IMG/VR virus record: IMGVR_UViG_3300005518_000005 | Length of the DNA: 53,650 bases | Direction: 5' to 3' (one strand) | Origin: a virus | Part shown: piece after piece, positions 4,153 to 36,557 of the stretch | How positions within the stretch are numbered: the stretch's first letter is position 1 | Layout of the letters: every line of letters starts with the position of its first letter | Made by a program: the position numbers and the translations under genes | Notes under the pieces: model-generated | What the model was told of the DNA's origin: nothing | The model's database searches: none | What the model saw: the letters and a program-made list of their open reading frames with translations, nothing else

Positions 4153-4814
4153 TCCCGCGCCGCTCGCTGATCGGGGCGCGCATCCCACACATCATTCCGC
4201 CCCCCGGTGCGATTTTCTATGCGCCGCTGACGCCGCCCACGAACGAAGCAGACATCATCCCGGTTCTGGCCACGCCATCGAACATCGGGCTGCCTGTTTC
4301 GTACAGTGCGGCCGGCGCTTCAATGACGACCGACATCGCATTGCAATGCGAACTTCGGTGGGACGCGGCAAAGTTTGACCTCGGGTTGGCGGCTTATGTT
4401 GGGAAGACCATCACTTTTTCCGTGAATGTCACTGGGGGCACGACCACGGGTTCGGGAACAGGTATAGAGGAGCGAATCGTTCGCTTCGTCGCCGGCAATA
4501 TCAACTACGAGTGCGGCTACTCGTATCAGATGATCGCGGGTGCCCTTCACTTATTCGCGCACACAAATTCCAACGGTGTTGTAGCAGTCACTGACCTGGG
4601 CGCCTTCCCCGGCGCGAACGCTCTGCTGCAGATGGTGATCAACGCGGCGGGCAATCAAGTCGACTACTTCGTGAACGGCGCCTTGGTGGATACTCGGCCG
4701 TTCAACAAGAGCACCGGCGCGGGCAGCAACTTCATCATCGAGACGCCGAATTTGCCCTCGGTGAACGGCTTTCTTGAGATCACGTACAAAAAAGCTTTGA
4801 TTCAGGCGCTTTGA
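4149..4814 (+). CDS. Hypothetical protein, possibly lectin/LamG-like, in a lower-GC patch
   Basis: ATG 4149 overlaps TGA 4150-4152. C-terminal ..QVDYFVNGALVDTRPF.. resembles ConA/LamG-type strands (weak). Visibly AT-richer codons. Confidence 0.65.
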   Translation: MIPRRSLIGARIPHIIPPPGAIFYAPLTPPTNEADIIPVLATPSNIGLPVSYSAAGASMTTDIALQCELRWDAAKFDLGLAAYVGKTITFSVNVTGGTTTGSGTGIEERIVRFVAGNINYECGYSYQMIAGALHLFAHTNSNGVVAVTDLGAFPGANALLQMVINAAGNQVDYFVNGALVDTRPFNKSTGAGSNFIIETPNLPSVNGFLEITYKKALIQAL

Positions 4815-4826
4815 AAGGATCGCTCT

Positions 4827-7211
4827 GTGACCTTGCGCATCGTCAACGCATTCCGCGGCGAAGTGCCGCTCTTGCCGCCGCGTGCGCTCCCTGACAGCGC
4901 AGCGCAGGAGGCGGTCAACGCGCGGCTCTATACGGGCGATCTGACCGCGTTCAAACAGTTCTCGACGACGCACGGCCTCGCCAACCCCGGCACGGTGCGC
5001 ACGATCGCGCTGCTCAAGGACTGGTGGATGTCGTGGGAGTCCGATGTCGACGTGGCGCGCGGCATCGTGCCGGGTGACACGACCTACCGCACGTTCTTGA
5101 CGGGTCTGGACAAACCACGCTTCACGAACCTCGACCTCGCGACCGGCACGCCGAACGGCAGTGCGCCGGAGCCGTATCCCTTCGAGACGCGGCTGCTCGG
5201 CGTACCGCCGCCGGACTCGCCGCCGACTACCGCGGTCGGTGTGGACTCGAACCCCACCTCGTTCTCGATCGACGTGACCGATGACGGCAGCGTATTTGCC
5301 AGCAACTGGGTCGCGTCAGCAGGCCAAGTCGACGTCAGCAACTACACGTCGATTGCTCGTCAGAACAACAGCACGGGCAACCCCGCGCCCTCTTATGAGT
5401 CTGGTGCGGAGAACAACCGGGGCAATCCGGCTTACGGTACACGCGACTTCGGCATTGGAAACACGACGGTCGCGACGATGTCTGTCGACATCATGATGGG
5501 CGACTCGGGCGGCAACGACGGCGGCGAAGTTGTCACGCTGTTCAACGTGGATGCTACGGGAGGCGGAGCACGCATTGGCATGAGCGGCCACTTTGGGAGT
5601 GGAGACTTCGTCGTCTACATCGGTAATGGCGCCGACTTCGGCTCGGGGCTTGGTGCACAAATTGCCAGTGGACCTTGCACTGGCAGCTTGACGCAGTTTG
5701 CTTGGTACACGCTCGAAGTATCGAAAAAGCTCAACAGCGACGGCACGACAACCATCACGGCGAGTCTCAAAAGCGGTGCCACCGTGCTCGGCACGGTGAC
5801 GACCACAAACAACTTCGCCAACGGTGCGCTTTGTGGTTTCATCGCCGCACGCGATGATGACCGCTTCCAGGGCTTTTACGACAACTGGCATGTTCAGGCC
5901 AGCGGCTCGACAAGCTACAACCCGGTCAACATCGCGACAAACTACGTCTACACGTTCGTCAACGATTTCAGCGAAGAGAGTGCGCCGTCGCTTCCGTCGC
6001 CCACAATCCTGCGCCCTGATGGCGTCAGCGTGACCATCACGACGCCGACTGGCGAGCCGACCGGCATCGATGGCGACTACCACATCACGACCAAACGCAT
6101 CTACCGTGCGGCCACCGGCAGCGCCGGTACTGCGTATCGGTTCGTGGCCGAGATCCCGATCTCCCAAGCGGACTACGTCGACACGCTGACTGACGCCGAG
6201 CTCGGCGAAGTGCTGCAGTCGGACATCTGGGCGTTGCCGCCGGATGACCTCGAGGGCATCCTCGCGCTACCCAATGGCGTGATGGTGGGCTTTCGGCGCA
6301 ACCAACTCTGTTTCAGCGTGCAGAACCAGCCGCATGCGTGGCCGGTCGAGTACCGGCTCAACACCGACACGGACATCGTCGGCATCGGCAACGTCGACAC
6401 GACGGTGGTGATCGGCACCAAGAGCTTTCTCTACACCGCGAGCGGCAATGACCCAGCGGCGTACAGCATGAGCAAGTTCGAGGTGCCCTACGCGGCATCG
6501 AGCAAGCGCAGCTTCGCCTATGTGACGGGGCTCGGTGTCGTGTTCAGCGGCCCGGACGGCTTGATGGCGTCGACCGGGCCGGGGCAACCGCGCAACCTCA
6601 CACAGTCGGTGTTCACGCGCCGACAGTGGCAGGCGCTCGACCCGACCAGCATCCGCAGTGTCTCGCACAACGACATCTATTTCATGTTCTGGGAGAGCGC
6701 GAGCGCCCGCGGCTGCTACGCAGTGGATCTACGCAACGAAGGTTTCGGGATCGTGCAGATGGCGTTCCACGCGAGTGCGGCGTATGTCGACCCGATCGAG
6801 GACAAGATGTACCTCGTGCTCGACTACGACAACGAGCCGGACGACGAGGCGCTGCCCGAGCCGGCGTCTCCCCCGCCCTATGTCGATGGGCGCACGATCT
6901 ACGAGTTTGAAGGCTCGCCCACCGCGTACATGAATTACCGGTGGCGCTCCAAGCTGTACCTGATGGAGTACCCCGGGTTCTATCCAATCGCCCAGGTGCG
7001 CCGCGCAAGCGATGCGGACGGCACGCAGGGTAATCTCGTGGCGCGGTTCTATGGTGACGGCGTGTTGCTCGACGAGATCGTGATCGACGGAGACATCGAG
7101 TTCACGCTCACGTCGCCAGATGCGGCGTACAGCAAGTTCTTCATGGAGCTGACAGGCACTGACCCGATCAACGTGCTCCAAGCCGCCGATGACGTGACGG
7201 AGCTGCGCTGA
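4827..7211 (+). CDS. Large tail (nozzle/tubular-type) virion protein, 794 aa
   Basis: GTG start with AAAGGA 7 nt upstream. Long, high-GC3 ORF in the tail module. TGATG overlap with the next gene. Confidence 0.8.
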   Translation: MTLRIVNAFRGEVPLLPPRALPDSAAQEAVNARLYTGDLTAFKQFSTTHGLANPGTVRTIALLKDWWMSWESDVDVARGIVPGDTTYRTFLTGLDKPRFTNLDLATGTPNGSAPEPYPFETRLLGVPPPDSPPTTAVGVDSNPTSFSIDVTDDGSVFASNWVASAGQVDVSNYTSIARQNNSTGNPAPSYESGAENNRGNPAYGTRDFGIGNTTVATMSVDIMMGDSGGNDGGEVVTLFNVDATGGGARIGMSGHFGSGDFVVYIGNGADFGSGLGAQIASGPCTGSLTQFAWYTLEVSKKLNSDGTTTITASLKSGATVLGTVTTTNNFANGALCGFIAARDDDRFQGFYDNWHVQASGSTSYNPVNIATNYVYTFVNDFSEESAPSLPSPTILRPDGVSVTITTPTGEPTGIDGDYHITTKRIYRAATGSAGTAYRFVAEIPISQADYVDTLTDAELGEVLQSDIWALPPDDLEGILALPNGVMVGFRRNQLCFSVQNQPHAWPVEYRLNTDTDIVGIGNVDTTVVIGTKSFLYTASGNDPAAYSMSKFEVPYAASSKRSFAYVTGLGVVFSGPDGLMASTGPGQPRNLTQSVFTRRQWQALDPTSIRSVSHNDIYFMFWESASARGCYAVDLRNEGFGIVQMAFHASAAYVDPIEDKMYLVLDYDNEPDDEALPEPASPPPYVDGRTIYEFEGSPTAYMNYRWRSKLYLMEYPGFYPIAQVRRASDADGTQGNLVARFYGDGVLLDEIVIDGDIEFTLTSPDAAYSKFFMELTGTDPINVLQAADDVTELR

Positions 7212-8362
7212 TGGCACTTGGTCGTCCTGCGATCAGCGAGGGCTCGGCCCGCGATCTGCGTTCGACGATCGCGGTGCTCGGTGCCATTCGTGCGCGCATT
7301 CAGGCGATCGAGAACTCGCTTGGCACAGTCAGCGACACCGCAGCGGCATCCTCGAGCGCGAACAGCACGCAGCTCAGCGCGCTACGCCAGCAGCTTCAAG
7401 CGCTGCAGTCCAAGGTCGATCAGATCCTCGCGACGATCGGGAACACCAACGACGATGTTGTCTATACCGCCGCGGAAGTAATCAGTCTTGGCCAGGGGGT
7501 GGTTGCGCTGTCCGAGACGACGGCGGGCGCGGCCGACCCGAGCGATCCGACGCGTCTGTTCACGGCTATCGGCGTGGCGATCAATTCGGCCAGCGCGGGG
7601 CATTCCGTCACCGTGCGCCGCCGAGGCGTGCTCACGATCCCCGGCGCTTCGTTCACCGTGCAACGTGCGGTGTATGCCTCCGTGACCGGCCTGACGCAGA
7701 CCCCAGACTACGACGCAACGGCGCTGCCGCTTGGCGTCGCGCTTGGAGCGACACAAATCTATGTCGATCCGGGCTGGCCGGCGCTGATGCTCCCCTTCGC
7801 CTCATCCTCGGGGATCGAGGAGTTGTACGAGTCCTATCTACCGGTCACATATCGGCTGCTACTGGCGACTCTTGACCTCGGCGCGCAGATCGCCGCGCTG
7901 CCGTACTCCAGTGGCATCCCGGTTGGCGCCATGGTGCCTGTTGAGATCGGCGGCGTTGCGCTTCGCGTATCTGCGAGTGACTTCGGAGGCGGCGGAGACC
8001 TCACAGCGCAGATTTTGGCGTTGCCTTTCTCTAGCGGGTTGCCAAACAACGGTGTTGTTCCTGTCGAAGCCGGCGGCGTGACGTACCGCGTAGCGACTAC
8101 GGATTTGACTGATCTCGGCGCGCTGATCGCGGCACTCCCCTTCAGTAGCGGTGCGGATGACTCCGCAATGGTTCCGATCGAGATCGCCGGCATCGGCCTA
8201 CGTGTCGCTGCGAACGATATTGGCAATCGAAGCGGTACCTTCACGTTGGCATCACTCGCCCCCGCTCCAGTAGCCTATGGGCACCGCTGGTTCGATTTGA
8301 GCGCCGGAATCGAGTACACGTGGATGAGCGATGGTAATTCTGGTCAGTGGGTAGAGATGTGA
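7211..8362 (+). CDS. Tail fibre protein with three internal ~39-aa repeats
   Basis: N-terminal coiled-coil-like region. Three repeats of the form ..AALP(Y/F)SSG..VP(V/I)E..G...RV... The C-terminal end is ..GIEYTWMSDGNSGQWVEM. Confidence 0.8.
   Translation: MALGRPAISEGSARDLRSTIAVLGAIRARIQAIENSLGTVSDTAAASSSANSTQLSALRQQLQALQSKVDQILATIGNTNDDVVYTAAEVISLGQGVVALSETTAGAADPSDPTRLFTAIGVAINSASAGHSVTVRRRGVLTIPGASFTVQRAVYASVTGLTQTPDYDATALPLGVALGATQIYVDPGWPALMLPFASSSGIEELYESYLPVTYRLLLATLDLGAQIAALPYSSGIPVGAMVPVEIGGVALRVSASDFGGGGDLTAQILALPFSSGLPNNGVVPVEAGGVTYRVATTDLTDLGALIAALPFSSGADDSAMVPIEIAGIGLRVAANDIGNRSGTFTLASLAPAPVAYGHRWFDLSAGIEYTWMSDGNSGQWVEM
7874..8224 (+). repeat. Three tandem ~117-bp coding repeats inside the tail fibre gene
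   Basis: DLGAQIAALPYSSGIPVGAMVPVEIGGVALRVSASD / DLTAQILALPFSSGLPNNGVVPVEAGGVTYRVATTD / DLGALIAALPFSSGADDSAMVPIEIAGIGLRVAAND. Confidence 0.85.
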
Positions 8363-29982: not shown

Positions 29983-30477
29983 TCAGTTGTTACCTCCGCC
30001 AGCAAGGTAGTCTTTGTGCGGGATCTTCTTGCCGCGCACGTTGAAGCCCCAGCCTTGGCGGTAGGGACCCGTGATGAACAGCGTCCAGCAGTCCTTGCCC
30101 GGCGGCAAGTCCAAGCGATGCCACGAGCCGGCCGGACGGTAGAGAACCGATCCGGGGCCGTGCCAGCGACGCGAGACGCACAGGCCCTCGGCGTCGTAGC
30201 GCTCCTCCCAGTACCCGCCGAACAGCACGACGGTCAGATACGGCCACGGGTGGTCGTGGGGATCGCGCCCGTGATCGCTGCGCAGGATCTGGTGGATGCG
30301 TGCGGCGATGCCGCAGAACTGGAGCAGCTTGGCGATCGGGCGCCTCCGCGGCATGGGGCCGCACCCAGCACCGAGCTGAGCATTCCGATACGGCACCAGC
30401 CAAAAGCGCTGCATGTATCCGTCCAAGTGAAAGTACGGTGTGCGCTGCGCGCGGCGGATCAGGTACTCGCGGATCAT
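29983..30477 (-). CDS. Hypothetical protein (164 aa, HDHPW motif)
   Basis: ATGA overlap with the helicase stop. YMQRFWLVP.. and RSDHGRDPHDHPWPYLTVVLFGGYWEE are present. A recurrent phage family of unknown function. Confidence 0.7.
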   Translation of the reverse strand: MIREYLIRRAQRTPYFHLDGYMQRFWLVPYRNAQLGAGCGPMPRRRPIAKLLQFCGIAARIHQILRSDHGRDPHDHPWPYLTVVLFGGYWEERYDAEGLCVSRRWHGPGSVLYRPAGSWHRLDLPPGKDCWTLFITGPYRQGWGFNVRGKKIPHKDYLAGGGNN

Positions 30478-31916
30478 GCCTCTACCCCTCGTTTCGTCGC
30501 CTCTATCAGAAGATCTTGCACACTGCGCTTGGTCTCGTGGCGCAACAGCACCAGCTCATCGATCGTGCCCTTAGCGACGATGTCGTACACCCACACCGGC
30601 CGCTCAAGCCCGGCCTGCATCTGGCGCGTCGGGCCGATGCGCTCGATCGCCTGCTGACGCAGCTCCAGATCCCAAGATGTGTTGAAGAACACCGCAATGT
30701 TCGTCACATGCTGGAAGCCGTCGATGCCGTGGCCCGCGCTCTTGGGGTGGGCCAAGAGCATGTCGATCTTGCCTGCCTTGAAATCGTCCTCATCCTGTTC
30801 GCTCTTGAGCACGCGCGCCTTGGGGAACAGTTTTTGGATGCGAGGTACGTCGCTCTTGAAGCTATAAAACACGAGCAGCGGCATACCCTCAGCCTCCTCG
30901 ACGATGCTCGCCAACGCCTCAAGCTTGGCGTCATGCACGACCTTGTAGGCGCGGGCGCGCGGGTCCTCGTCGTTGAGGACGTCAGGGTCTAGGTACGCCG
31001 CGCCGCCGGCAAGCTGCAAGAGCTTGGTCGACTTGGAGGCGGCGTTGAACGCCTCGATCTCGTGGTTCTCCAAGCGGATGAAGAAGTCACGCTCCATTTG
31101 CCGATAGAGCTTCATCGCCGGCTCAGGCAACTCGACCTCGATCACGCGCTTGATCGGGTCCTTGAGGTCGAACCAGTCCCGCGCGTCGATCGATAGGCAG
31201 AGATCCTTGACGAGGTCGTGGATCTCGGTATGCGCGTTCGGCAGAATGATCGGCTGGATGTGAGTCTTGTGCGCATTCACCGCGTCACGCACACGCTTGA
31301 ACGCGAACCAGCGGTTCTCGAACGACTCGTAGGTCAGTCCCAGCCGCTTGCCTCGGTCCAGGAAATAGAGCTGGCCCCAGAGTCCCTTGAGGCCGTTGGG
31401 CGACGGCGTGCCGGTAAGCTCGATGAAGTGCCGGATGCGGTCGTGCCACGCGAGCTCGTGCAGTGCGCGGGTCATTGCGCCGCCCTGCTTGACGCGGAAG
31501 GCGTGCAGCTTGCGTGACTCGTCGGAGATGACCGTGCGGAACGGCATGTACCCGGCGTGCTTCAGGTAGGTTATGAGCCAAGGCACAACGTCGTAGTTCA
31601 TGCTGTAGATGTGCGCCGGCCGCTTGAGCGCGGCCTCTCGCTCGGCCTGGGTGCCCACGACCCGGCTGATCTCCAGATGCGCCGTGTGGTGCCACTTGCG
31701 GGTTTCATCGCTCCAGACTTTGCGCGCCACGCGCAGTGGCCCGAGCGCGAGTGCCGGCCACGCGTCACCGCGGAGCATGTCGATCTGGTCGAGCGCCGTC
31801 AGAGTCATGGAGGTCTTCCCAAGCCCCATGCCAGCCCACAGCGCGCAGCGCCGATGCTCGACGATGTGGTCGATGCCGAGCGGCTGCCACGGCCTGGGGT
31901 GGTATGCCTGAGTCAT
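30474..31916 (-). CDS. SNF2-family DNA helicase
   Basis: LWAGMGLGKT (motif I), VISDESRKLHAF (motif II) and LLAHPKSAGHGIDGFQ (helicase C) are present. 480 aa. Confidence 0.85.
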   Translation of the reverse strand: MTQAYHPRPWQPLGIDHIVEHRRCALWAGMGLGKTSMTLTALDQIDMLRGDAWPALALGPLRVARKVWSDETRKWHHTAHLEISRVVGTQAEREAALKRPAHIYSMNYDVVPWLITYLKHAGYMPFRTVISDESRKLHAFRVKQGGAMTRALHELAWHDRIRHFIELTGTPSPNGLKGLWGQLYFLDRGKRLGLTYESFENRWFAFKRVRDAVNAHKTHIQPIILPNAHTEIHDLVKDLCLSIDARDWFDLKDPIKRVIEVELPEPAMKLYRQMERDFFIRLENHEIEAFNAASKSTKLLQLAGGAAYLDPDVLNDEDPRARAYKVVHDAKLEALASIVEEAEGMPLLVFYSFKSDVPRIQKLFPKARVLKSEQDEDDFKAGKIDMLLAHPKSAGHGIDGFQHVTNIAVFFNTSWDLELRQQAIERIGPTRQMQAGLERPVWVYDIVAKGTIDELVLLRHETKRSVQDLLIEATKRGVEA

Positions 31917-32128
31917 TCACGTCCCAAGCTCAATTCGATTTCACGCTGCAGCTCACGCTCGAGGGCTCGCTCAGCGTACTCCTGCCGCTCAGGGGTGTAG
32001 ATGACTGCGGCCTTCGCACGTCCGTCGCCGCAGATGCCGACCACACGATACGCATAGGCGTTGCCATTCGCGTCAGGTAACATCGCGACTCGCTCGAGCG
32101 GTCGGAATGTCACAACAGGGGCAGCCAT
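31913..32128 (-). CDS. Hypothetical protein (71 aa)
   Basis: ATGA-type overlap with the helicase start. Good GC3. Confidence 0.6.
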   Translation of the reverse strand: MAAPVVTFRPLERVAMLPDANGNAYAYRVVGICGDGRAKAAVIYTPERQEYAERALERELQREIELSLGRE

Positions 32129-32379
32129 GTGTCCAACTCCTCGATTGTGGTGATGACGAGCACGGTGCAGCCGGCGGCACGCATGCGCTCGTGCTCGGCG
32201 GCTTGCCGCGCAGTCGCGTCTTTCTTCGGTCGTTTGGTTTCCACGTAGACATGCTCACCGGGCAACATCACGAACACGTCGGGGCAGTGCTTGCGGCCGA
32301 GCCACGCCGCGGCGCGCGTCTCGCCGCCGTAGGCCTTGACCCGCGCGTCGAGCGCCTTGCGGATGTCGTGTTCTTTCAC
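32110..32379 (-). CDS. VRR-NUC domain nuclease
   Basis: GTG 32379 with GAGG 5 nt upstream. The product reads ..DVFVMLPGEHVYVETKRPKKDATARQAAEHERMRAAG... Confidence 0.7.
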   Translation of the reverse strand: MKEHDIRKALDARVKAYGGETRAAAWLGRKHCPDVFVMLPGEHVYVETKRPKKDATARQAAEHERMRAAGCTVLVITTIEELDTWLPLL

Positions 32380-32395
32380 GTTTGCCTCGAAGAGT

Positions 32396-32716
32396 TCAAG
32401 TTGCTCCCTCCTTGGTCTCCTTCGCCCGGCTGCGGATCTGGCGCACGCGGGCCTCGGTGATCTTGAGCTCGCGCGCCAGCTCGGAGGCCGTGAGCACCGA
32501 GGCGAGCACCACCCGGCGGATGTGCCACGCGTGCTTGCGCTGCGCGATGCCGCGGCGGGTGTTGGCGAGCGTGCGGCGATCGAGGTTGCCGGCGAAGACC
32601 TCATAGGTGTCGAACTTATGCTCGTTGAAGCACAGCCGTTGTCGGCGCAGCAACACGTCCTTGTACTTGCGCGTGGCATAGACATGGCTGTCGGCGCCGC
32701 AGCGAGGGCACTTCAC
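32396..32716 (-). CDS. Zinc-ribbon plus HTH putative transcriptional regulator (NrdR-like N-terminus)
   Basis: GTG 32716 in a GTGA overlap. VKCPRCGADSHVYATRKYKDVLLRRQRLCFNEHKFDTYE is followed by LTASELARELKITEARVRQIR. Confidence 0.55.
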   Translation of the reverse strand: MKCPRCGADSHVYATRKYKDVLLRRQRLCFNEHKFDTYEVFAGNLDRRTLANTRRGIAQRKHAWHIRRVVLASVLTASELARELKITEARVRQIRSRAKETKEGAT

Positions 32717-32895
32717 GGCCTGAGCCTCGCCGGCAGCGCGAGGCCGTAGGGCGCTATCAGCTTCTTGTGGCACTTGCGGCAGCGGCACGCGACGTAACCC
32801 TCGCGGTAGGCGTTGTCCGGTACGCGCACGATCTCGCGGATGCTGACCTCGTGCTTGCAGAAGAATTGCCGAAGGCGAAGGAGGAACGTCTTCAT
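32713..32895 (-). CDS. Small Cys-rich (zinc-finger-like) protein
   Basis: ATGA overlap with the upstream gene. 60 aa containing CKH..CRCRKCH. Confidence 0.6.
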   Translation of the reverse strand: MKTFLLRLRQFFCKHEVSIREIVRVPDNAYREGYVACRCRKCHKKLIAPYGLALPARLRP

Positions 32896-33131
32896 TCCGG
32901 CACCACGTCAAAAGCGTCAGGGTCGGGCTTGCTCAGGCAGTTGTGCACGACACCCGGCGCCGAATCAAACAGCACCCACTTGCCTGTCTGTTGGCGCCAG
33001 CGCACGTCGGTCGAGCCGCAGAACTTGCAGCGCGGTTCTTGGCGTGGACGATCAGCGAAAAACCCGTGGTCACCACCCCATCGATCGCCGCCCATTAGAC
33101 GATCGATAGCTTCGTCAGCGTATTCACCCAT
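32892..33131 (-). CDS. Small zinc-ribbon protein (79 aa)
   Basis: The ATG lies 3 nt after the polymerase stop. CKFCGS..HNC is present. Confidence 0.6.
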   Translation of the reverse strand: MGEYADEAIDRLMGGDRWGGDHGFFADRPRQEPRCKFCGSTDVRWRQQTGKWVLFDSAPGVVHNCLSKPDPDAFDVVPE

Positions 33132-33134
33132 GGC

Positions 33135-36100
33135 TCAGTCCTTCCGATACGGTCCGGTCGTCTCGTAGCCGGCGGCAGCGAGCGGCAGGCCGCGGTTCCA
33201 CAAAAGGTCGGCGCACATCATCGCGCCGAGCTTCTCGGCGTTCAAGTCGTCACGGTCGGCGTCGGCCTCGCTCACGATCTCATCGTGAATCGTCAAGGTG
33301 GTTTCAAAGCCTGCAGCTTCGATCGCCTCGATCGGTTCCAAGAGCTGGTCGCACGCCACGGCCTGGGTGCAGTTGTGCACGATCAGCGGTATCCCGTCGC
33401 TTCCCCGAACCACGAATCGACTCCGAGGTCCGCAGTCAATCAGGTCGAAGACAAGCCGAGGGCTTTCCTCAGCGGCCACCCGTGGTCGAGCCGGTAGAGC
33501 AGCGTGGTCCTCTTGACCCCGAAAGTGTCCGCCGCCTGCGCTGCCGTCATGCGCCCGCGCGGTGTTCCGAGCCATCGGTTTGCTCGCGTATTCGACGCTT
33601 GCGCTTTGCGCGTCACCCAAATGCAGTTGCTTGGGGTGTAACCTCGACTGTTGTTCGATCGCTCTATCGTCAAGCCGTGGACGTACGTCAGTCCCATGTC
33701 GGCCCAGAAGGCGTCGAACGACCGTTGCCACTTGGCGCAAACACGAATCCCACGGCCCCCGTAACGTGAGTACGCCGGGTGCTTGGGGTTGTGGCAGCGC
33801 GCCAGCAGCGACCGCCACACCGCATAAGCTGGATGAGCTGACATGCCGTGCTTCGTGTTCTTCTGCCCGATCGTCACGAAGCGCAAGCATCTGCAGGAGG
33901 CTTTGACGCTCTTGTTCTGCAGTTTCAGCAGCTCGCTCGCGGCCATCTCGATCGTTCGGCCACATTGGCATTTGACTTCCCACAAGGAGCGTCGCCCGTT
34001 GCTGCCGGTATACCGAATAGCTGAAAGGTAGCCGACACGGAGCCCGCTGATGTCTTTCGCACGATGATGCACGCTGCCAACCTTCTGTTGTGAGCACCCG
34101 ATGCTCGGGCGTCATCTCGACGTTGAAAGCTGACAGCGTATGTCTCTTACCCCTATAAACGCAACCTTTGTGCGTGACCCACTCCTCGCCATCCCACACA
34201 CGTAGCTGTGGAGAGATAGTTTCGATCGGGAACCAACCTCTTTCAGTCAGAACCTCGGTGCCTTCGGCGATGCAATTCTCAAATATCTTCCCACCGTAGG
34301 TGCTGATGCGCGACCACTTGCGGCTGTACTGGTTGTGGCCCTTGTAGCTGATCCCGGGATAGGTGCGCTTGCGGCCAGTTTCGGGATCTTCCTCGACCAC
34401 GTCGAGGCCGACGCCGGGGTAGCACAGCTCGCGCCCGCTGGGCAGCCCGATGCGCAGCCACCGGCCGCTGACCTTCATCTTGACCTTGCGCGCCGGGCAG
34501 ACCTCGCCGGGGTTCGCGATGCAGTAGCGGATGGTCTCCTCGAGCTCCTTCCAGTACGTGCTGATCTCGGGGTGAGCGTGACGCCACAGGCGCTTGATCG
34601 CGTCGCACGCGACGAACGTCTTCTCGGCGAGGCCGAGCCGGGCCTTGAGCTTGCGCCGCTCGCATGCCTCCTCGTCGATCTTGCCGAGCAGGAACGCCTC
34701 CTCGGCGTCCTCGTAGAGCCAGCCGAGGAACTTCTTGGCCTCGGTCAGCGCCCATTCGGGCAGCTTGTCGTAAACCTGCTCGGTCATCTGCGCGAGGTCG
34801 ATGCTGTAGGTCGCTGCACCCGTGATGAACGCGCCGACGCCACCACCGTACTGCAACATCAGCTCCTCGACCTTGCCGATCTGACGCTCGTTGCCTTTCT
34901 TCGGCACGTCCGCCGGCTCGACGCCGAACGAGCGTGCATAAGCGAGGATGTAGAGGTCGAAGCCCTCGCCGCTGTCGTAGTCGCGGAACGCCTGCAGCTT
35001 CCACTCCTCGCCGGCCAGCCACGCCGCGAAGCGGCCTTCGATATTCGCCAGATCGGCGACAACGAGCTTCTTGCCCGTCCCGGGGATCAGCGTGCCGCGG
35101 ATGCAGTTGGAGCACGCCTGCATGGTGTCGTCGAAGATCAGATCGACGTAGTCATGCTTGATCGCGTCGATCGCAATCAGGATCAACTCCTTGGACAGCG
35201 TCGGGCGCGGCATGTTGCCGGGCTGGAACAGCCGGTGGGCGACGCGGCCGGTGCGCGCGGCGCCGCGAAACTGCATCGTGCCGCGCAGCCGGCCGTCGGT
35301 GTTGACCGAGCGCAGCAGCGTCTTGAACTTGGACACGCTGCCGGTGGCGCTCTCCAGGCGCACGGCCAGCAGCTCGCGCAGCTCGTCGGGCAGCGCCTCG
35401 TCCTTGATGCGCCGCTCGAGCGTGGCCGAGGTCATGTCGGGCAGATCGATGCCGTAGGTCTCGAGGATGTGCGCGATGAGCTGGTCGCGCTGCGTGGCGC
35501 GCTCGACCTCGCCGTTCGTCAGCGCCTGAGTGCGCCGCGCGAGAGTGGCCTTGGCCTTCTCGCTGGCCTCCACGGCCGCTCGTGCAAGTTCGACGTCGAC
35601 GCAGATGCCGCGCCGGTTGATCTTCTGGTCGAGCGCCCACAGCGCCCACTGTTTCGGGGTGTTGTTCCACTTCGGCATGCGCCGATGGCACTCGCGCATC
35701 GCGATGATGTCCTTGCCGGCGTAGCGCTTGAACTCTTCCCAGTCCTCGGGGAAGCCTTCTGGCCGGTTGAAGCCACCGGCCTTGTTCGGCACGCAGAAGC
35801 GCTGGATCAGCGCGCGGCCGCGCTTGTCCTTGGCCTTCTCGTCCACGACCCCGAGCGCTGCGCACAGCGCCTCCAGCGCGCCCGGCAGGCCGTGCAGGTA
35901 TGCCTGCACCATCGTGTCGCGGCGACGCTCCAGCGGCACGATCTCGCAGATGTAGCGCATGCTCGGGTCCGGGTCGGTCTCGAGGACGTTCCAGTCGAAC
36001 CACGCGTTCTGGAACCAGACCAGGCAATCGGGGTTGTGCAGCGCGTCGCGCAAGCGTTTCGGCCAGTCCAGCGGGCCGAGGAGCCGATCGAGCACGTGCG

Positions 36101-36245
36101 GCTCCTCGTCATCGATCGCCCAAGCGAACAGGATGATCTCGGCGCGCTCGGCGTACTTCGCCACGCCGTTCTTGATCGGCTCGGGGCTCCGGGTCTCGGT
36201 GTCCAACCACAGGTTCACAGATTTCTCGCTTGCCACAAGTGCCAC
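33135..36245 (-). CDS. Family A DNA polymerase with 3'-5' exonuclease domain, interrupted by an intein (precursor 1036 aa)
   Basis: LDTET (Exo I), VVADLANIEGR (motif A), ERQIGKVEELMLQYGGG (motif B) and TLTIHDEIV (motif C) are present. The extein junction is FEN / CTQAVACD. Confidence 0.93.
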   Translation of the reverse strand: MALVASEKSVNLWLDTETRSPEPIKNGVAKYAERAEIILFAWAIDDEEPHVLDRLLGPLDWPKRLRDALHNPDCLVWFQNAWFDWNVLETDPDPSMRYICEIVPLERRRDTMVQAYLHGLPGALEALCAALGVVDEKAKDKRGRALIQRFCVPNKAGGFNRPEGFPEDWEEFKRYAGKDIIAMRECHRRMPKWNNTPKQWALWALDQKINRRGICVDVELARAAVEASEKAKATLARRTQALTNGEVERATQRDQLIAHILETYGIDLPDMTSATLERRIKDEALPDELRELLAVRLESATGSVSKFKTLLRSVNTDGRLRGTMQFRGAARTGRVAHRLFQPGNMPRPTLSKELILIAIDAIKHDYVDLIFDDTMQACSNCIRGTLIPGTGKKLVVADLANIEGRFAAWLAGEEWKLQAFRDYDSGEGFDLYILAYARSFGVEPADVPKKGNERQIGKVEELMLQYGGGVGAFITGAATYSIDLAQMTEQVYDKLPEWALTEAKKFLGWLYEDAEEAFLLGKIDEEACERRKLKARLGLAEKTFVACDAIKRLWRHAHPEISTYWKELEETIRYCIANPGEVCPARKVKMKVSGRWLRIGLPSGRELCYPGVGLDVVEEDPETGRKRTYPGISYKGHNQYSRKWSRISTYGGKIFENCIAEGTEVLTERGWFPIETISPQLRVWDGEEWVTHKGCVYRGKRHTLSAFNVEMTPEHRVLTTEGWQRASSCERHQRAPCRLPFSYSVYRQQRATLLVGSQMPMWPNDRDGRERAAETAEQERQSLLQMLALRDDRAEEHEARHVSSSSLCGVAVAAGALPQPQAPGVLTLRGPWDSCLRQVATVVRRLLGRHGTDVRPRLDDRAIEQQSRLHPKQLHLGDAQSASVEYASKPMARNTARAHDGSAGGGHFRGQEDHAALPARPRVAAEESPRLVFDLIDCGPRSRFVVRGSDGIPLIVHNCTQAVACDQLLEPIEAIEAAGFETTLTIHDEIVSEADADRDDLNAEKLGAMMCADLLWNRGLPLAAAGYETTGPYRKD
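33372..34274 (-). mobile_element. Intein (301 codons) in the DNA polymerase
   Basis: It starts CIAEGTEVLTERGW (block A), contains TPEHRVLT (block B) and ends GSDGIPLIVHN, followed by the +1 Cys. Length is an exact multiple of 3. Lower GC than the flanks. Confidence 0.85.
33440..34072 (-). CDS. Free-standing-type HNH homing endonuclease nested in the intein, in a different frame from the polymerase
   Basis: GTG start with GAAGG upstream. DISGLRVGYLSAIRY, CQCG, SCRC, YSRYGGRGIRVCAKW, GLTIERSNNSRGYTPSNCIWVTRKAQASNTR and a C-terminal HTH-like tail are present. Frame offset from the polymerase is 1. Confidence 0.8.
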   Translation of the reverse strand: MHHRAKDISGLRVGYLSAIRYTGSNGRRSLWEVKCQCGRTIEMAASELLKLQNKSVKASCRCLRFVTIGQKNTKHGMSAHPAYAVWRSLLARCHNPKHPAYSRYGGRGIRVCAKWQRSFDAFWADMGLTYVHGLTIERSNNSRGYTPSNCIWVTRKAQASNTRANRWLGTPRGRMTAAQAADTFGVKRTTLLYRLDHGWPLRKALGLSST

Positions 36246-36409
36246 TGGGCAACCGAATGCTGGGTTGTGCCGCGACGCGCCGGGAAGCCTACAAAAACGC
36301 CGCCGTCGTTGAGTAAACGTCGCGCATTGCGCCTGTGTGCTCGGCGGCGTTTGCGCTTGTCTTTGGCGTAGCCAAGGCTGATCGCTTGTGCTGTCGACAT
36401 GATTTTCAC
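36215..36409 (-). CDS. Small very basic protein (64 aa), overlaps the polymerase start
   Basis: GGAGGG lies 6 nt before GTG 36409 (ATG 36400 is the alternative). Contains KDKRKRRRAHRRNARR. Confidence 0.5.
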   Translation of the reverse strand: MKIMSTAQAISLGYAKDKRKRRRAHRRNARRLLNDGGVFVGFPARRGTTQHSVAQWHLWQARNL

Positions 36410-36420
36410 AGTATTCCCTC

Positions 36421-36557
36421 CTCTTTGATGGTGGCGGCGCGGTCTTCTCGACCCGGCGTGAAGCGGTTCCCGTCTCCGTTGATGCCGAGAGGCACAGAAG
36501 GCTCTGCCAATGTGCCGCGGGTGCGACCTTCGCGGCGTTGCCGCCACCATCAAAGAG
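36421..36557 (-). other. 18-bp perfect inverted repeat closing a ~100-nt multi-hairpin intergenic leader upstream of the small basic gene / polymerase
   Basis: CTCTTTGATGGTGGCGGC (36421-36438) is the reverse complement of GCCGCCACCATCAAAGAG (36540-36557). Inner hairpins include GGCAcAG aagg CTcTGCC and CCGCG..CGCGG. The 3' arm abuts the SD. Confidence 0.6.

Follow-up and report, generated by a model that had tools for sequence, protein, structure and literature searches.

Virus record IMGVR_UViG_3300005518_000005 of IMG/VR, a stretch of 53,650 nucleotides that is probably a near-complete phage genome (the whole of it is called the window here), contains a family-A DNA polymerase gene with a 903-nucleotide insertion. 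This insertion is very probably a mini-intein that splices in cis, with a separately translated homing endonuclease gene in its loop, which makes the insertion a two-part selfish element inside an essential replication gene. The two genes share the same DNA and strand in different frames. The +1 frame, which encodes an HNH-like protein, is conserved in related phages, and the polymerase frame of the same DNA stays free of stop codons in every nested copy. The parts of this arrangement are the following:

33135-36245, minus strand: open reading frame (ORF) of the polymerase precursor, family A of the BPP-1/BcepC6B/APSE type, 1036 residues in a single uninterrupted frame.

34275-36245, minus strand: N-extein, 657 residues ending in ...YGGKIFEN, delimited by alignment to intein-free alleles, with a GC content at third codon positions (GC3) of 0.91.

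33372-34274, minus strand: predicted class-1 intein, 301 codons (Cys1 ... His300-Asn301), delimited by the presence or absence of 903 nucleotides relative to the sister contig L084 and to intein-free proteins.

34029-34274, minus strand: N-terminal splicing lobe, residues 1-82, with block A (Cys1) and block B (T55-x-x-H58), predicted with a local distance difference test score (pLDDT) above 90.

33474-34019, minus strand: polymerase-frame linker, residues 86-267, rich in Arg, Ala and Gln, stop-free, with pLDDT below 50 and predicted to be disordered.

33372-33473, minus strand: C-terminal splicing lobe, residues 268-301, with block F (V-F-D277) and block G (H300-N301), pLDDT of about 94.

33369-33371, minus strand: +1 Cys codon, residue 1 of the C-extein, which is Val or Ile in intein-free alleles.

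33138-33371, minus strand: C-extein, 78 residues (CTQAVACD...IHDE...), followed by the stop codon at 33135-33137.

33440-34072, minus strand: nested gene for an HNH-like homing endonuclease, 210 codons long and shifted by +1 from the polymerase frame, from GTG (34072-34070) to TGA (33442-33440).

34081-34085, minus strand: Shine-Dalgarno-like motif GAAGG, 8 nucleotides 5' of the GTG, within the Glu-Gly codons of the conserved T-E-G-W, a putative ribosome-binding signal.

34112-34114, minus strand: TGA that closes the +1 frame 5' of the nested gene, within block-B codons, the nearest upstream stop.

The polymerase ORF matches the DNA polymerase family phrog_17 (E 5e-91), and its Pfam matches to DNA_pol_A and to exo1, the model of the 3'-5' exonuclease, are weak and sub-threshold. 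Exonuclease and polymerase domains and a motif C of the HDE type, which identify family-A polymerases, are present, and the nearest isolate polymerases are those of Bordetella BPP-1, Burkholderia BcepC6B and Hamiltonella APSE phages, with 46-50% identity. A megablast search of the phage collection with the polymerase gene gave no match, and the polymerase relatives were obtained by protein-level searches. Motif C (IHDE) lies 27 residues downstream of the intein, and the insertion divides a conserved polymerase motif. In the intein-free proteins P0003, P0020, P0022, P0027 and P0028 the segment GGKVFEN, followed by Val or Ile and then by TQA, is continuous over the junction, and the empty alleles share 71-94% extein identity with the window. 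The sister contig L084, whose extein has 91.6% nucleotide identity to that of the window, has a gap of exactly 903 nucleotides at the intein. The insertion is in frame, contains exactly 301 codons, occupies a conserved host site and is missing from close homologues. A search of the 53.65-kb window found no second polymerase, intein or HNH copy, and because this polymerase is the single one in the window, splicing is very likely needed for replication of the phage, as far as its sequence can tell. The original prediction had placed the junction between FEN and CTQAVACD and had taken the polymerase as essential; the extein alignment agrees with the former, and the lack of any other polymerase in the window agrees with the latter.

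The intein starts with CIAEGTEVL, whose Cys1 codon is 34274-34272, contains the TPEH motif of T55 and H58, encoded at 34112-34101, and ends with IPLIVHN, whose Asn codon (33374-33372) is directly followed by the Cys codon (33371-33369). In an alignment of 41 intein-bearing polymerases C1, T55, H58, D277, H300 and N301 do not vary and the +1 Cys hardly varies, and C281, G282 and P283 of the C-terminal lobe are also invariant. When the 301 residues of the polymerase frame are modelled with AlphaFold2, residues 1-80 and 270-301 have pLDDT above 90 and residues 86-267 have pLDDT below 50. The confident lobes match the Spirulina DnaX, Ssp DnaB and Mtu RecA mini-inteins in Foldseek searches (probability 1.0, E 4e-4 to 1e-2). 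The following marks of a class-1 intein are found: Cys1, TxxH, the block F Asp, the block G His-Asn, the +1 Cys and a predicted HINT fold. Intein models of Pfam and NCBIfam match neither frame, so the intein call rests on the motifs, the predicted fold and the clean in-frame presence and absence. The linker, whose DNA is the body of the nested gene, has no match to Pfam, PHROG or NCBIfam models when it is read in the polymerase frame.

Motifs and model together support the insertion as a class-1 mini-intein, and the polymerase precursor would mature by protein splicing. The anatomy first described from the letters of the window proved correct in every element: a 903-bp class-1 intein with its block motifs, a 210-residue ORF from GTG 34072 to TGA 33440 which opens after a TGA in block B (34114-34112) and closes inside the C-terminal splicing segment, and between the two halves of a mini-intein a stretch of the polymerase frame that looks off-frame. 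The GC content over the N-lobe (34000-34300) is 0.525-0.56, against about 0.66-0.69 in the flanking extein, and the GC3 of the intein is 0.60, against 0.91 in the extein; this composition suggests that the intein originated in a lower-GC donor.

The nested ORF ends inside block F (VFDLI), where its stop codon overlaps the codons of Leu278 and Ile279. Its best PHROG match is phrog_374 (E 3.6e-51), the matches to HNH-annotated PHROG families range from about 1e-51 to 1e-17, and a tblastn search with the nested protein matched 991 phage records. Profile searches thus separate the two frames as had been anticipated, the +1 frame matching HNH families of PHROGs and the polymerase frame matching nothing. 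GC3 is 0.75 in the +1 frame, and the polymerase frame has its high-GC position at position 1, a pattern which indicates that the overlap DNA is coded in the +1 frame. With AlphaFold2 the +1 product is modelled at a mean pLDDT of 91, compared with less than 50 for the polymerase frame of the same DNA. The model is an elongated multi-module chain, with a predicted template modelling score (pTM) of 0.58, and its neighbours in BFVD are phage HNH/helix-turn-helix (HTH) homing endonucleases and AP2-domain proteins, with E values down to 1e-22.

Nested relatives with 47-58% identity are found at the same position and in the same +1 frame in APSE-1, in Caulobacter phages, in Shewanella SFCi1 and in 17 IMG/VR contigs (L004-L017, L019, L025 and L027), and the +1 ORF is intact in 20 out of 20 nested copies. 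Among 19 nested copies, which are the window and 18 relatives, the differences per site at positions 1, 2 and 3 of the +1-frame codons are 0.44, 0.39 and 0.61, respectively, and amino-acid identity among the nested relatives is about 46% in the +1 frame and 25% in the polymerase frame. The closest pair (L007 and L009) has 0.16, 0.13 and 0.47 differences per site at the same three positions, and its amino-acid identity is 78% for the +1 reading and 49% for the polymerase reading. The third-position bias and the identities of the two frames indicate purifying selection on the protein of the +1 frame and none on that of the polymerase frame. These data support the +1 ORF as a real and conserved homing-endonuclease-like gene.

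In the window, the polymerase frame of the overlap contains no stop codon and the third frame contains 8. A stop-free polymerase frame has P = 0.002 when the synonymous codons of the nested ORF are permuted and P = 0.005 when the codon order is shuffled. For the isolates the permutation gives 5e-5, 7.5e-4 and 0.012, which with the window makes four lineages with GC contents from 46 to 62%; each isolate copy is in the +1 frame, with no stop in the polymerase frame and 11-16 in the third. Scanning IMG/VR with an alignment of four proteins gave 80 loci, of which 17 are nested between homologous intein lobes and 63 are free-standing, and these 17 plus three isolate loci are the 20 nested copies. 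The polymerase frame is stop-free in all 20, where the third frame has a mean of 10.7 stops. The equivalent frame is stop-free in one of the 63 free-standing relatives, with a mean of 16.7 stops, and in none of the 12 free-standing relatives with a GC content of at least 0.55. The free-standing relatives are a natural control, which makes the avoidance of stops specific to the nested state. This sequence comparison is decisive in pointing to selection as what maintains the open polymerase frame, as the original prediction had proposed from the window.

Three loci that were scored as free-standing (L021 3563-4546, L081 2969-3985 and L035 2951-3994) are unusually poor in stop codons in their -1 frame. 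The HNH-like gene of L021 is overlapped by that frame, which codes for an SSB-like protein (phrog_44).

Translation of the nested gene presumably starts at GTG 34072, as the start regions of its relatives indicate. The relatives start either directly before the conserved HHRAxD N-terminus, with GTG or ATG, or 5-6 codons earlier, and the earlier ATG arises from the Asn/Asp codons of T-N-D-G-W. The motifs GAAGG, AAGGG or GAGG are found at Shine-Dalgarno-like spacing 5' of these starts, the GAGG motif being derived from the block-B His-Glu-Val codons. An in-frame stop is present about 7 codons 5' of the conserved N-terminus in most relatives, and 13 codons in the window, and such a close upstream stop argues against a long upstream fusion by frameshifting. 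An independent gene caller picked the identical 210-residue ORF on a short contig (P0121).

The distribution of the intein was counted among the 120 closest polymerase homologues, and these counts are lower bounds. The site is empty in at least 41 of them and occupied in at least 43. The site of the window, GGKxFEN/C-TQA (a slash marks the insertion point), is occupied in at least 30 homologues, a site three codons upstream, GGKx/C-EN-xx-QA, in at least 13, and a related intein is found in motif B (GKV/C-ELM) in at least 3. None of the 120 polymerase homologues has an in-frame version of the nuclease motifs. The element is also found in a second host gene, a DNA helicase (phrog_62), where the same lobes and a nested +1 HNH-like gene are present (L015 2330-4762 and L027 586-3888).

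The sister contig L084, which is the contig of P0002, has an intein of its own in motif B (4380-5244; 864 nucleotides, 288 codons; RQIGKV/C...HN/CELM), with lobes 41-49% identical to those of the window. This intein has a +2 frame without stops from end to end, which codes for a distant HNH-like relative of the nested protein (26% identity, E 1e-11). Between the window and L084, extein nucleotide identity is about 0.92 but drops to 0.69 just upstream of the L084 intein site and to 0.71 just downstream of the intein of the window. The low-identity intervals, of 90 nucleotides each, are 34869-34958, which has a 28-nucleotide indel nearby, and 33246-33335. These drops of identity at the two sites look like co-conversion tracts, the pattern that would be expected of co-conversion during homing.

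The two neighbouring sites were compared over 33369-33392 and 34272-34295 of the window, and the contigs contrasted for them are L001, L002, L006, L007, L009, L017 and L025 on one side and L003, L004, L010, L011 and L014 on the other. In L004 (643-7286), which has the closest nested protein (58% identity), the polymerase gene is in several pieces, with a frame change after the intein. A DNA methylase ORF (1713-2432) lies between two of these polymerase pieces, and nearby are an HNH/AP2 ORF (4517-5200) and, at 6600-7286, a free-standing gene paralogous to the nested one. On the same strand of the window, 3' of the polymerase, the region 30474-33131 contains small ORFs, one of them coding for an NrdR-like zinc ribbon, and a SNF2-type helicase. 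The gene order 3' of the polymerase matches between the window and L084.

In the proposed mechanism, the ribosome would read the polymerase frame through, producing the N-extein, an N-lobe of about 82 residues, an Arg-rich loop of about 185 residues, a C-lobe of about 34 residues and the C-extein. The HINT lobes would then associate, the intein would be excised together with the loop, and FEN would be ligated to CTQA to give an active polymerase, the disordered read-through loop being tolerated at the usual endonuclease-insertion point. The nested gene would be translated separately from its GTG, with a ribosome-binding signal within the block-B and T-E-G-W codons. Its product, a putative nuclease, would cut intein-less polymerase alleles, its presumed target, in co-infection, and repair would copy the intein and the endonuclease gene together. 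Selection against stops would follow from translation of the polymerase through the nested gene, and purifying selection in the +1 frame from the need of the nested gene to function as a protein, so that the +1 frame would be kept as a protein and the polymerase frame would be kept merely stop-free.

Several observations weigh against this reading. Neither frame matches an HNH model of Pfam or NCBIfam. A Foldseek search of the PDB with the model of the nested protein returned noise only, mostly kinases, with nothing significant over the whole chain; the elongated multi-module shape of the model is a likely explanation of this lack of matches. Among solved HNH enzymes, only I-HmuI (PDB 1u3e) gives a link, through a weak profile match to its beta-beta-alpha-metal motif (E 0.059), and the position of the I-HmuI catalytic His is occupied by an invariant Arg (Arg138, 33659-33661) in 45 of 45 aligned family members. 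A scan for sigma-70-like promoters inside the polymerase gene found none, and RNA folding around the nested start is no more stable than that of shuffled sequences (z = 0.39). The disordered loop of about 185 residues may slow splicing. A stop-free overlap has P = 0.10 under the GC3-rich codon usage of the extein when the window is taken alone, and with such a chance figure in a single sequence the case for selection rests on the comparative data.

The motif of the nested family is [D/E]-R-x2-N-x3-Y-x3-N-x2-W-x8-N, in which [D/E]-R138 is followed by N149 and N161, both Asn residues being invariant. Compared with the catalytic residues of HNH enzymes, the general-base His is replaced by Arg and the two Asn are retained. 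The Arg at the I-HmuI His position and the missing HNH model matches are the reasons why the protein is named HNH-like here and is not taken as a proven HNH enzyme. The nuclease call is based on PHROGs, on BFVD and on the weak I-HmuI match, and the sequences suggest that the nested family may use a variant active site. The free-standing phage HNH identity given to this ORF in the original prediction stands in part: the PHROG HNH match and the conservation of the gene are in line with it, and the silence of the Pfam HNH models and the Arg at the catalytic position are not.

The same Arg throughout the family, together with the lack of a Pfam HNH match and of a significant PDB fold match, would suit a nested ORF that is an inactive or domesticated relic, for example a DNA-binding protein only, inside a mini-intein with a junk loop. 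This is unlikely, since the ORF is intact in all 20 nested copies, with third-position bias, frame identities of 78% against 49% in the closest pair and a pLDDT of 91. The presence and absence of the insertion are moreover precise and recent, with mosaic flanks, and phages very commonly carry free-standing relatives with this Arg (the 991 phage records), as would be expected of an active family whose site is a variant one. An endonuclease made by programmed frameshifting, either as a fusion to the N-extein and N-lobe or by a double shift that gives an in-frame HNH intein, would agree with both frames being on the same strand, with an ORF that begins right after the N-lobe and with the A-rich runs (GGAAAAG/GGAAAAATG) near the start in some relatives. 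It is very unlikely, given the in-frame stop about 7 codons (13 in the window) 5' of the N-terminus, the conserved starts with Shine-Dalgarno-like motifs and the lack of structured RNA at the site (z = 0.39); a double shift would free the polymerase frame from staying open, yet this frame is open in 20 of 20 copies.

Out-of-frame HNH insertions without splicing domains are known (PMC11855218), and the insertion could likewise be unspliced and tolerated as a ShiLan-like surface loop, or the polymerase could be dispensable. Both HINT lobes, the invariant class-1 catalytic residues and the confident intein fold make this highly improbable, as do a position about 27 residues before motif C that splits a conserved motif, the Cys at the +1 residue in occupied alleles and the lack of another polymerase in the window. 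A sequencing or assembly artefact, in which two compensating indels would mask an ordinary in-frame HNH intein, has next to no probability, because the offset (+1), the start region and the position of the stop are shared by the Sanger-era sequence of APSE-1, four Caulobacter phages, SFCi1 and 17 IMG/VR contigs, and because the HNH motifs are in frame in 0 of the 120 polymerase homologues. The same +1 offset in three isolate lineages and 17 contigs excludes compensating sequencing errors.

Two other arrangements were considered and rejected. A split intein or fractured gene does not agree with one uninterrupted ORF of 1036 codons and with no polymerase-frame stops in 20 of 20 nested copies. 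A group I or group II intron was rejected with no Rfam intron match at E values up to 1 in the region 32500-36500.

Elements made of a mini-intein and a nested HNH-like gene occupy at least three sites in phage family-A polymerases, plus the helicase, and use both alternative frames. The architecture had been seen at first as a snapshot of how composite inteins arise, a view which does not hold, because it is old (the nested proteins are about 46% identical) and widespread. It is possible, although rather doubtful, that these elements form a large and long-lived two-part family in which the nested gene is translated separately and the architecture is a stable end state, not an intermediate. 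If so, there would be an advantage in keeping the nuclease outside the precursor, in timing, in dosage or in avoiding a polymerase-tethered nuclease, and the active site would function with Arg replacing the canonical His.

The mini-intein with its nested gene is an unusually clean case of dual coding, in which selection maintains the protein of one frame and in the other acts only against stops. It supports a "splicing first, endonuclease later" order of intein evolution, and it indicates that an out-of-frame arrangement can last and become widespread and is not of necessity a short-lived intermediate. On full contigs the long polymerase ORF is all that gene callers report, so that nested nuclease genes go systematically unnoticed, and the "intein endonuclease domain" of such polymerases would be an unstructured read-through peptide.

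The architecture is already known, from APSE-1 and from alternate-frame intein endonucleases, but it is rare, and the family described here is large. APSE-1 P45/P46, the Caulobacter phages GB2A, RW, RLK and KcrB and Shewanella SFCi1 have the same layout as the window, with 46% identity in the polymerase N-extein, 50% and 70% in the N- and C-terminal intein lobes and 48-54% in the nested protein. They share with the window the V/M-HHRA.D start region, the stop in block F and the open polymerase frame. RefSeq annotates NP_051007.1, "HNH endonuclease", inside NP_051006.1, "DNA polymerase", which is APSE-1 P46 inside P45. The intein of APSE-1 and GB2A is three codons upstream (GGKx/C-EN...) of the site of the window, which is the site used in SFCi1, and the phage of the window has a high-GC genome unrelated to this group. 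Intein loss and gain have been described among APSE polymerase variants (PMC7313666). In the literature searched, the APSE-1 P45/P46 overlap was not found described as an intein with an out-of-frame endonuclease gene, although an earlier description is possible. Beyond that literature, the present analysis adds the HNH-like type, the size of the family, its multiple sites and hosts, the use of both alternative frames, the free-standing control as well as a lack of in-frame versions.

Out-of-frame HNH genes are also known outside inteins. The DNA methylase insertions of ShiLan-type mycobacteriophages carry an HNH gene that is out of frame and begins with GTG a few codons in, and they resemble the window in the nested stop at the end of the insertion and in the stop-free host frame. 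They have no detectable splicing domains or Shine-Dalgarno sequence and are thought to be retained, whereas the window has a complete intein and Shine-Dalgarno-like motifs (PMC11855218). In fractured genes with split inteins, a free-standing endonuclease gene lies between the intein halves (Dassa et al. 2009, PMC2677866). There, as in the window, the endonuclease gene is at the endonuclease-insertion point of the intein and overlaps at its 3' end with the codons of the C-terminal part of the intein, but the host frame is broken in two, splicing is in trans and the endonucleases are GIY-YIG or Vsr-like (PMC2677866), while the host frame of the window is continuous and selected to remain so. Canonical in-frame HNH inteins and the nickase I-HmuI are, like the nested protein, modular, with a beta-beta-alpha-metal-like motif, DNA-binding modules and a phage replication gene as target. 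The nested gene, unlike canonical HNH inteins, is out of frame with its intein, and its match to I-HmuI is weak, with Arg for His.

The idea of alternate-frame or antisense endonuclease genes in inteins was first put forward by Gorbalenya in 1998, according to bioRxiv 10.64898/2026.09.14.751524. A cyanobacterial dnaX intein has a LAGLIDADG gene in its +2 ORF (bioRxiv 10.64898/2026.09.14.751524), and actinobacteriophage inteins have EndoVII-like genes in frame 3, or antisense LAGLIDADG or VSR genes (bioRxiv 10.1101/2025.01.02.630785). No out-of-frame HNH within a true intein is listed in either bioRxiv 10.64898/2026.09.14.751524 or 10.1101/2025.01.02.630785. The features that define an alternate-frame endonuclease intein are found in the window: an ORF between the lobes, an extein frame that is open and predicted to be unstructured, and another frame that is predicted to be folded and is selected. 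The window and these non-canonical inteins share mini-intein lobes, disorder in the extein frame, a folded endonuclease in another frame and frame-dependent selection, and the same interpretation applies to both, in which a free-standing endonuclease gene would have invaded a mini-intein. The window differs from them in its endonuclease, an HNH-like protein that has AP2-like and HTH modules, in the frame of this gene (+1) and in its host, a family-A polymerase, and its element, unlike those inteins, occupies several sites and two host genes, the polymerase and the helicase.

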